NCBI RefSeq assembly: GCF_003334335.1
Contig: NZ_QOWQ01000057.1
DNA length: 17,995 nt
Source of the DNA: Escherichia coli
GTDB lineage: Bacteria; Pseudomonadota; Gammaproteobacteria; Enterobacterales; Enterobacteriaceae
Strand: one strand, 5' to 3'
Under the pieces are notes generated by a model. It worked only from the letters and a program-made list of their open reading frames with translations, made no database searches and had not been told where the DNA came from. The first letter of the stretch is position 1. Each line of letters begins with the position of its first letter. The position numbers and the translations under genes are program-made. This document shows, one piece after another, positions 16,354 through 17,995 of the stretch.

Positions 16354-16523
16354 AGTTTAACGGACACTCCTTCGTAAGGAGCTAAGGCTACGCTGTAAGC
16401 AGAAACGCAAGTTCAGAGCGACTACGAACTCGAACCACAATCTGCCAGTTGCGCCAAATCTGCTGAACCAGACGTTCGCTCCTACAGCACCAAATCAGGT
16501 CTGGGTGGCGGACCTGACGTATG
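16354..16523 (+). pseudogene. Internal fragment of an IS3-family transposase (OrfB), truncated at both ends
   Basis: Frame reads LLRKELRLRCKQKRKFRATTNSNHNLPVAPNLLNQTFAPTAPNQVWVADLTYGK; PNQVWVADLTY is the hallmark at the start of the IS3-family DDE domain. A TAA stop lies just upstream (about 16349-16351) and no OrfA-like sequence precedes it. The fragment stops at the IS66 left end. Confidence 0.55.
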
Positions 16524-16608
16524 GTAAGCGTAAAGCCAATGCCGTCTGTAACACCTGCTCCTTGCAGACTAAATTAGAGCTCCTTCTAAATTAGACGGAG
16601 TTCTATTG

Positions 16609-17043
16609 ATGGATAAACCTACAGACTGGCGCTCCGGAACCCGCCGGATATTTTCTAATGAATTTAAACTTCATATGGTTGAACTGGCTTCGAAACCAAA
16701 TGCCAATGTTGCACAACTGGCCCGGGAACATGGCGTTGATAACAACCTGATTTTTAAATGGCTACGCCTCTGGCAAAGAGAAGGACGTATTTCTCGCAGA
16801 ATGCCTCCAACTATTGTAGGCCCTACAGTATCACAATCTTTTCCGGCCTCTCCGACTCTGGTTCCAGTGGAACTTATCGACACCCCGCGCTGTGCTACAG
16901 ATGCTCCTGCTCCGGAGGCATTATCAGTTGCTTGTGCAGCTTCCTGCCATGTGGAATTCCATTACGGTAAAATGATGCTGGAAAATCCTTCACCAGAGCT
17001 GCTCACGGTGTTGATCCGTGAGCTGACCGGGAGGGGACGATGA
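16609..17043 (+). CDS. tnpA: IS66-family accessory protein TnpA (orf1)
   Basis: MDKPTDWRSGTRRIFSNEFKLHMVELASKPNANVAQLAREHGVDNNLIFKWLRLWQREGR; GGAG 8 nt upstream of ATG 16609. The ORF-track start at 16606 is a TTG. Confidence 0.85.
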   Translation: MDKPTDWRSGTRRIFSNEFKLHMVELASKPNANVAQLAREHGVDNNLIFKWLRLWQREGRISRRMPPTIVGPTVSQSFPASPTLVPVELIDTPRCATDAPAPEALSVACAASCHVEFHYGKMMLENPSPELLTVLIRELTGRGR

Positions 17044-17390
17044 TTTCACTCCCATCAGGTACCCGTATCTGGCTCGTTGCCGGCGTTACTGATATGCGTA
17101 AATCCTTCAACGGTCTGGGGGAGCAAATACAGCATGTGCTGGATGATAACCCCTTCTCCGGTCACCTGTTTATCTTCCGTGGCCGACGGGGAGACACGAT
17201 TAAAATCCTGTGGGCTGATGCTGATGGTCTGTGCCTGTTCACCAAACGCCTTGAGGAAGGTCAGTTTATCTGGCCTGCGGTGCGTGACGGTAAGATATCC
17301 ATTACCCGCTCGCAACTGGCAATGCTCCTCGATAAGCTGGACTGGCGTCAGCCAAAAACATCCCGCCTTAACGCACTGACAATGTTGTAA
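17040..17390 (+). CDS. tnpB: IS66-family TnpB (orf2)
   Basis: MISLPSGTRIWLVAGVTDMRKSFNGLGEQIQHVLDDNPFSGHLFIFRGRRGDTIKILWADADGLCLFTKRLEEGQF...; ATGA overlap with the tnpA stop. Confidence 0.88.
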   Translation: MISLPSGTRIWLVAGVTDMRKSFNGLGEQIQHVLDDNPFSGHLFIFRGRRGDTIKILWADADGLCLFTKRLEEGQFIWPAVRDGKISITRSQLAMLLDKLDWRQPKTSRLNALTML

Positions 17391-17420
17391 AAAACTCCTG
17401 ACCGCATTATAAAAACGGCC

Positions 17421-17995
17421 ATGAGTCAGAAATACCTCATTCGCATCGCTGAGCTGGAAAGGCTGCTCTCTGAGCAGGCTGAAGCCCTCCGTCAGAAAGA
17501 CCAGCAACTGAGTCTGGTTGAAGAGACGGAGGCCTTCCTGCGCTCTGCACTGGCACGTGCCGAAGAAAAGATCGAAGAAGATGAACGGGAAATAGAGCAT
17601 CTGCAGGCTCAGATAGAAAAACTGCGCCGGATGCTGTTCGGAACCCGTTCTGAAAAACTGCGTCGTGAGGTTGAACAGGCTGAAGCCCTGCTGAAACAAC
17701 GCGAGCAGGAAAGCGATCGTTACAGTGGGCGTGAGGATGACCCGCTGGTTCCCCGCCAGTTGCGACAGTCGCGCCATCGTCGTCCGTTACCGGCACATCT
17801 CCCCCGTGAAATATACCGCCTGGAGCCTGAAGAAAGCTGTTGCCCGGAGTGTGGCGGTGAGCTGGATTATCTGGGGGAAGTCAGCGCAGAACAACTGGAA
17901 CTGGTGAGCAGCGCCCTGAAAGTGATCCGCACAGAACGGGTAAAAAAAGCCTGTACAAAATGTGACTGCATCGTTGAAGCACCGGCACCATCCCG
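17421..17995 (+). CDS. tnpC: IS66-family transposase TnpC (orf3), N-terminal ~191 codons, 3' end outside window
   Basis: My translation from ATG 17421: MSQKYLIRIAELERLLSEQAEALRQKDQQLSLVEETEAFLRSALARAEEKIEEDEREIEHLQAQIEKLRRMLFGTRSEKLRR...EESCCPECGGELDYLGEVSAEQLELV...KKACTKCDCIVEAPAPS; coiled-coil leader then CxxC...CxxC zinc motif typical of IS66 transposases. Absent from the ORF track because no stop is reached. Confidence 0.85.
   Translation, partial: MSQKYLIRIAELERLLSEQAEALRQKDQQLSLVEETEAFLRSALARAEEKIEEDEREIEHLQAQIEKLRRMLFGTRSEKLRREVEQAEALLKQREQESDRYSGREDDPLVPRQLRQSRHRRPLPAHLPREIYRLEPEESCCPECGGELDYLGEVSAEQLELVSSALKVIRTERVKKACTKCDCIVEAPAPS

Follow-up and report, generated by a model that had tools for sequence, protein, structure and literature searches.

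The archetypal IS66-family elements IS679 and IS66, reportedly described by Han et al. in 2001, are said to carry three genes (tnpA, tnpB and tnpC) between terminal repeats that start with GTAAGCG, and to duplicate 8 bp of target DNA. Each of these traits (gene order, GTAAGCG ends and 8-bp duplication) is seen either at the locus described here or in sister copies of the family member ISEc43. For ISEc43, an 8-bp direct repeat is on record in the literature (PMC6531882). The IS3-family element IS600 is known from Shigella and Escherichia coli, and a full 1264-bp copy on a Shigella flexneri plasmid (L004) served as our reference. Both elements are already catalogued, and nested insertion sequences turn up routinely in the islands and plasmids of E. 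coli; the sole new item at this locus is an ISEc43 insertion site.

The locus lies at the right end of a 17,995-nucleotide stretch of E. coli DNA (the window), beyond a defence module consisting of hsdM, hsdS, darT, darG, hsdR and an M48 peptidase gene. The original prediction, made from the sequence alone, placed an IS66-family element inside an IS3-family transposase remnant. This proved correct, with ISEc43 sitting in an IS600 scar and the junction falling at 16523/16524. The features of the nest are as follows, all on the plus strand:

16342 to 16373, plus strand: IS600 left terminal inverted repeat, nucleotides 1–32, matching L004 with one mismatch at nucleotide 2
16370 to 16373, plus strand: CTTC microhomology at the deletion junction (IS600 nucleotides 29–32 and 607–610), seen as a 4-nt overlap of the BLAST pieces
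16374 to 16523, plus strand: internal fragment of IS600 orfB, nucleotides 611–760, a pseudogene (BLAST, NCBIfam, PGAP)
16516 to 16523, plus strand: GACGTATG, the 8-bp target (IS600 nucleotides 753–760), expected to be duplicated at the ISEc43 right end (empty site, sister-copy duplications)
16524 to 16550, plus strand: ISEc43 left inverted repeat (left against right repeat in copy L005)
16524 to 17995, plus strand: ISEc43 nucleotides 1–1472 of 2541, running to the window end (identity, five independent flanks)
16609 to 17043, plus strand: tnpA, 144 aa, intact (open reading frame list, NCBIfam IS66 TnpA models)
17040 to 17390, plus strand: tnpB, 116 aa, IS66-type accessory protein, intact (NCBIfam IS66_TnpB, open reading frame list)
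17421 to 17995, plus strand: tnpC (transposase), first 191 codons, running to the window end (translation, NCBIfam)

The IS600 remnant begins at 16342, the first base of its left inverted repeat, and not at 16354 as had been proposed. The segment covering nucleotides 1–32 is 97.1% identical to L004 by BLAST and reads TAAGG instead of TGAGG at its tip (T16342, A16343). The second segment, window positions 16370–16523, corresponds to IS600 nucleotides 607–760 at 98.7% identity. Because the two segments overlap at the 4-nt CTTC, the remnant is an internal deletion derivative rather than a 5′-truncated copy; the deletion of 578 bp (nucleotides 33–610) took the 5′ portion of orfB as well as orfA and the frameshift site. 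The original prediction of an IS3 piece without its 5′ part is therefore imprecise, as the element lost its interior and kept the left inverted repeat. What survives of orfB matches positions 174–225 of NCBIfam transpos_IS3 (E 3.8e-14) and stops just past the first catalytic Asp motif, VWVADLTY. PGAP labels the counterpart in strain WCHEC020031 (L002) an incomplete IS600 family transposase.

By the standards of a functional IS3-family element the remnant falls short: its orfA/orfB frameshift region is absent and the left tip of the TG...CA pair is lost. An Rfam search found no frameshift pseudoknot at the remnant. The right repeat is intact only in genomes that carry the uninterrupted scar, and there the scar is flanked by no 3-bp target duplication (CCA on the left, GGT in L002 or CAG in L012 on the right). 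Compared with full IS600 from Shigella and E. coli, the scar retains the left inverted repeat and orfB nucleotides 611–760 at 97–99% identity; it differs in the 578-bp deletion, the TG-to-TA tip and the missing 3-bp duplication, and in the window it is now split by ISEc43. In one genome (L007, near locus position 7073, window 16381) a 10-bp deletion lies just past the internal deletion junction, a further sign of the scar's decay.

A minus-strand open reading frame spans window positions 15914–16342 (especially 16101–16342), with its ATG at 16340–16342. The first base of this codon, T16342, is the first nucleotide of the IS600 left repeat, so the start codon is an artefact of the junction. The 80-aa fragment encoded by 16101–16342 belongs to no NCBIfam family, and a search of 5.8 billion proteins returned a single near-identical orphan of 100 aa. 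IS600 probably cut a gene here, of which the fragment would be what is left.

On the other side of the junction, all 1472 nt from 16524 to the window end belong to ISEc43. The orfB frame (frame 2 from 16346) reads ...LRKELRLRCKQKRKFRATTNSNHNLPVAPNLLNQTFAPTAPNQVWVADLTY up to the junction and GKR beyond it. Its Tyr codon occupies 16520–16522, G16523 is the last IS600 base and GTAAGCG begins at 16524, so that the PNQVWVADLTY frame ends where the element starts, as originally read from the sequence. This frame is a pseudogene in every genome examined rather than part of an intact gene. The GTAAGCG at 16524 is not a chance 7-mer, as the 1472 nt beyond it match annotated ISEc43 copies in thousands of E. 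coli records at 99.7–99.9% identity. Four other copies of ISEc43 in unrelated flanks were compared, and there too the common sequence starts exactly at GTAAGCG, which identifies 16524 as the true left terminus of the element. Some BLAST hits started 8–10 nt before 16524, raising the idea of a longer end; inspection showed these extensions to be chance similarity of the flanks.

Comparison of copies gives ISEc43 a length of 2541 bp ending in ...GACGCTTAC. The window's copy was compared over its left 1472 nt, the right 1069 nt lying outside the window, and the right repeat (...CGCTTAC) was read from reference copies only. In copy L005 the terminal repeats are imperfect: their first 8 nt (GTAAGCGT) are the same on the left and right, and 17 of 27 positions match. 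Across the 1472 nt, the window's copy shows one mismatch to the copy on plasmid pAST81_1, two to the copy in strain NCTC86 and three to that in an O104:H4 chromosome. Private to the window's copy is A17605, which places Gln at TnpC position 62 where the other copies compared have Arg. The window's ISEc43 thus shares with known copies the terminus, the tnpA-tnpB-tnpC order and the ATGA overlap of tnpA and tnpB, and departs from them in this private base and in an insertion site found in no searched collection.

The three consecutive genes characteristic of the IS66 family are all present. tnpA is recognized by NCBIfam IS66 TnpA models (E 1e-18, under the curated cutoff), and its stretch has zero nucleotide differences from the L006 copy, whose product PGAP calls 'transposase' (WP_001309734.1). 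tnpB, whose ATG overlaps the tnpA stop codon as ATGA, scores 119 bits against IS66_TnpB (cutoff 50). tnpC translates for 191 codons to the window end with no stop, and its N-terminal part matches positions 4–78 of NCBIfam transpos_IS66, under the cutoff because the gene is partial in the window. From the near-identity to full-length copies annotated as 'ISEc43 family transposase' we infer that the TnpC DDE domain would follow beyond 17995. With tnpC read to codon 191, the element looks competent for transposition and is probably active.

The comparison with related genomes that the original prediction called for yielded an uninterrupted scar almost everywhere. The left flank (window 16040–16523) is present in 189 complete E. 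coli genomes; among the 25 matches listed, identity is 100% and alignments end at 16523. In L002 the empty site reads ...GACGTATG followed directly by TTGCCACACAGG..., continuing to the IS600 right repeat, and the uninterrupted scar measures 686 bp. Using a 1051-bp probe (scar plus both flanks, with at least 80% of its length matched in one place), we found the scar uninterrupted in 184 of the 189 genomes, and in these 184 it follows the same hsdMS-darTG-hsdR-M48 module. The remaining five are assemblies of the NCTC86 lineage (NCTC86 and strain B-2207), in which ISCro1, also of the IS66 family, interrupts the same scar at a site 27 bp onward and is flanked by an 8-bp duplication, GTTGTACC. The NCTC86 case agrees with the window in scar, locus, defence module and the orientation of its IS66-family interruption, and differs in being ISCro1 rather than ISEc43 and in lying 27 bp on, which makes it an independent event. 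In our NCTC86 locus (L003) the ISCro1 region spans 6512–9211 inside the scar. The same strain carries an ISEc43 about 1.2 kb beyond the scar (L003, 10884 onward; also L021), interrupted by ISEc45 of the IS110 family.

Assembly contexts selected by an exact match to the M48 peptidase or HsdS give a concordant picture. Fifteen of 20 have the empty site (5 of 10 M48-protein contexts and 10 of 10 HsdS contexts), four break at 16125 and one has a deletion within the scar; the ISEc43 junction is absent from all 20. The empty site, GACGTATG followed by TTGCC, was read in L002 and in 15 other sampled loci. Megablast of window 16000–17995 did not find the ISEc43 junction in 5,426 complete E. coli genomes. 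One record, a plasmid, covered at least 80% of this query, but it has an IS600 fragment merely near an ISEc47/ISEc43-like element, with another junction. Exact scans with the left junction pattern GGCGGACCTGACGTATGGTAAGCGTAAAGCCAATG gave zero matches in JGI metagenome contigs and zero in GTDB species-representative genomes, and no PLSDB plasmid record covers the junction. A synthetic right junction (the ISEc43 3′ end, GACGTATG and the rest of the scar) had no true match in complete genomes; six records reached at least 80% of it, each as two pieces spanning more DNA than the query. The ISEc43 insertion is private to the window's source and late.

A junction seen in no other record searched, in a contig that ends inside a multi-copy element (a median of three matching places per E. 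coli genome among complete genomes), could in principle be a chimeric contig assembled across repeated IS sequence. We consider this very improbable. The break coincides exactly with the first base of an IS terminus, beside an IS600 scar of unique context, and the 1472 nt of IS run on error-free; a false join through a repeat would not make such a precise junction of IS end and target.

The reading we favour, and hold to be probable, is that the left junction arose by simple insertion of ISEc43 into the internally deleted IS600, with the right end deduced from other copies. An old IS600 copy would have decayed through internal deletion and tip mutation and become fixed beside the defence module. 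Only in the window's lineage would ISEc43 then have inserted after IS600 nucleotide 760, a position that divides the orfB pseudogene just past the first catalytic Asp and lies in no functional gene. This was probably a recent transposition into a long-dead IS600. Under simple insertion the ISEc43 right end should fall near window coordinate 19064, or further on where tnpC holds another IS, with GACGTATG and TTGCCACACAGG next in line; in full, the element should end ...GTTGACGCTTAC and be followed by GACGTATG, TTGCCACACAGGAGGGATGGTTGTACC and the remaining 504 nt of the scar. The duplication step is deduced here, since the window stops short of the ISEc43 right end and of the second octamer. Sister copies point the same way: all three ISEc43 copies that could be checked at both ends are simple insertions with 8-bp duplications (CTTACGAT, GAACGGAT and, in NCTC86, CGTCATAC), and for CGTCATAC matching empty sites were found in L012 and L014.

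The same left junction could also have formed by rearrangement from a nearby resident ISEc43 rather than by a fresh insertion, through adjacent deletion mediated by the element or recombination between two ISEc43 copies. The starting point would be an NCTC86-like order of IS600 scar, EspI fragment and ISEc43, from which the 3′ part of the scar and the DNA as far as the IS would have been lost; the junction would then have no target duplication and a foreign right flank, for comparison with which the NCTC86 flank reads CGTCATACTTGGTCGAAGC. NCTC86 has the closest left flank, with one mismatch in 6484 nt, and about 1.7 kb past the site, not counting ISCro1, it has an ISEc43 of like orientation. 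Adjacent deletion from such a copy could yield the observed left junction without duplication, and the region is littered with IS debris, several of its flanks having been exchanged. However, the ISEc43 copies of the window and of NCTC86 show 2 differences in 1472 nt, above the expectation from the flank divergence of 1 in 6484, and the window's copy is nearer to the plasmid copy (one mismatch) than to that of NCTC86. Adjacent deletion by IS66-family elements was not documented in this analysis, and the sister copies behave as simple insertions. We therefore regard rearrangement as unlikely, though a more serious contender than an assembly error, and retain simple insertion as the preferred account.

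The position of the nest relates to the organization of the surrounding island. The M48 peptidase gene is the last of the module, and the scar is found 316 bp downstream of it; the module itself lies at the end of a larger CP4-type prophage-remnant island with an Ag43 adhesin, a cbtA/yeeU toxin–antitoxin pair and an antirestriction protein. The darT-darG pair (10475–12195) sits between hsdS and hsdR within the type I restriction-modification operon, an arrangement kept in all related loci fetched. At the other end of the window, 3026–3262 on the minus strand matches the Rfam IS102 sRNA (67.8 bits, gathering score 46), just upstream of an Ag43-like autotransporter reading frame (161–3082, minus strand).

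Insertion sequences mark the right edge of the module, as originally predicted, and they do so in more than one form. The same internally deleted IS600 scar has two right flanks, one with a C4-dicarboxylate transporter, a racemase and a LysR regulator and the other with an EspI fragment. A third variant breaks at window 16125 and leads through a ~70-bp IS66-family 3′ remnant into cdiI/cdiA. This second IS-marked edge was observed in L008, L009, L011 and L015, near locus position 6817. A longer IS600 remnant (nucleotides 439–1264) in strains EC20 and 21437 has the first right flank, with IS1 and unrelated cargo on its left. In the corresponding loci (L018 and L019, 8463–9289) the remnant is truncated by IS1 and the left cargo is entirely different, showing what appears to be flank exchange at this IS600 copy. 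Its two right flanks, the differing left cargo, the lack of a 3-bp duplication and the 16125 variant make the scar plausible as a seam, and flanking DNA has likely been swapped by way of IS600 homology at this edge of the module. The case for IS600-mediated recombination at this edge is circumstantial and does not prove mobilization. The scar, already fixed in the lineage, would act at most as portable homology for the exchange of flanking segments. For the stacked insertions as a route by which the island was assembled or mobilized, this leaves a possible part for IS600 at a recombination seam but none for ISEc43: since the island is common without it, ISEc43 came later than the island and cannot have assembled it.

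Every variant of the module has IS remnants at its right edge, whether as the IS600 scar or as the IS66-family 3′ remnant at 16125, which would fit a composite mobile unit in which an IS pair carries the module and serves as the vehicle of the island. We find this scarcely credible. Neither the window's open reading frame list nor the L017 annotation has a matching IS copy to the left of the module, and no composite-transposon structure was seen around it. In the IS600 scar orfA, most of orfB and the correct terminal TG are missing, no other sampled copy of the module has ISEc43, and the module itself lies within the larger prophage-remnant island.

Among about 190 genomes, ISEc43 and ISCro1 have both entered the 686-bp scar, 27 bp apart and in the same orientation, and in other genomes IS66-family ends occur within a few hundred bp of IS600 fragments. 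Two insertions so close together give a weak hint of a local target preference, from two events in IS-rich DNA. It is improbable that the scar, or IS3-family DNA near the first catalytic Asp codon, is a preferred landing site for the IS66 family; if it were, the preference would be one not described for the family and would steer its elements into dead DNA.

As an ordinary strain-specific event, the insertion has little significance beyond strain typing, for which the ISEc43 junction is a unique lineage marker, being found in no searched collection. ISEc43 would add a second, active source of rearrangement beside the defence genes: the type I restriction-modification and DarTG module now has a probably active insertion sequence about 500 bp away, one that could delete, invert or move its neighbours. 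IS breakpoints recur at the right edge of this module, which makes it a useful if unsurprising case of the mosaicism that insertion sequences create in E. coli islands.
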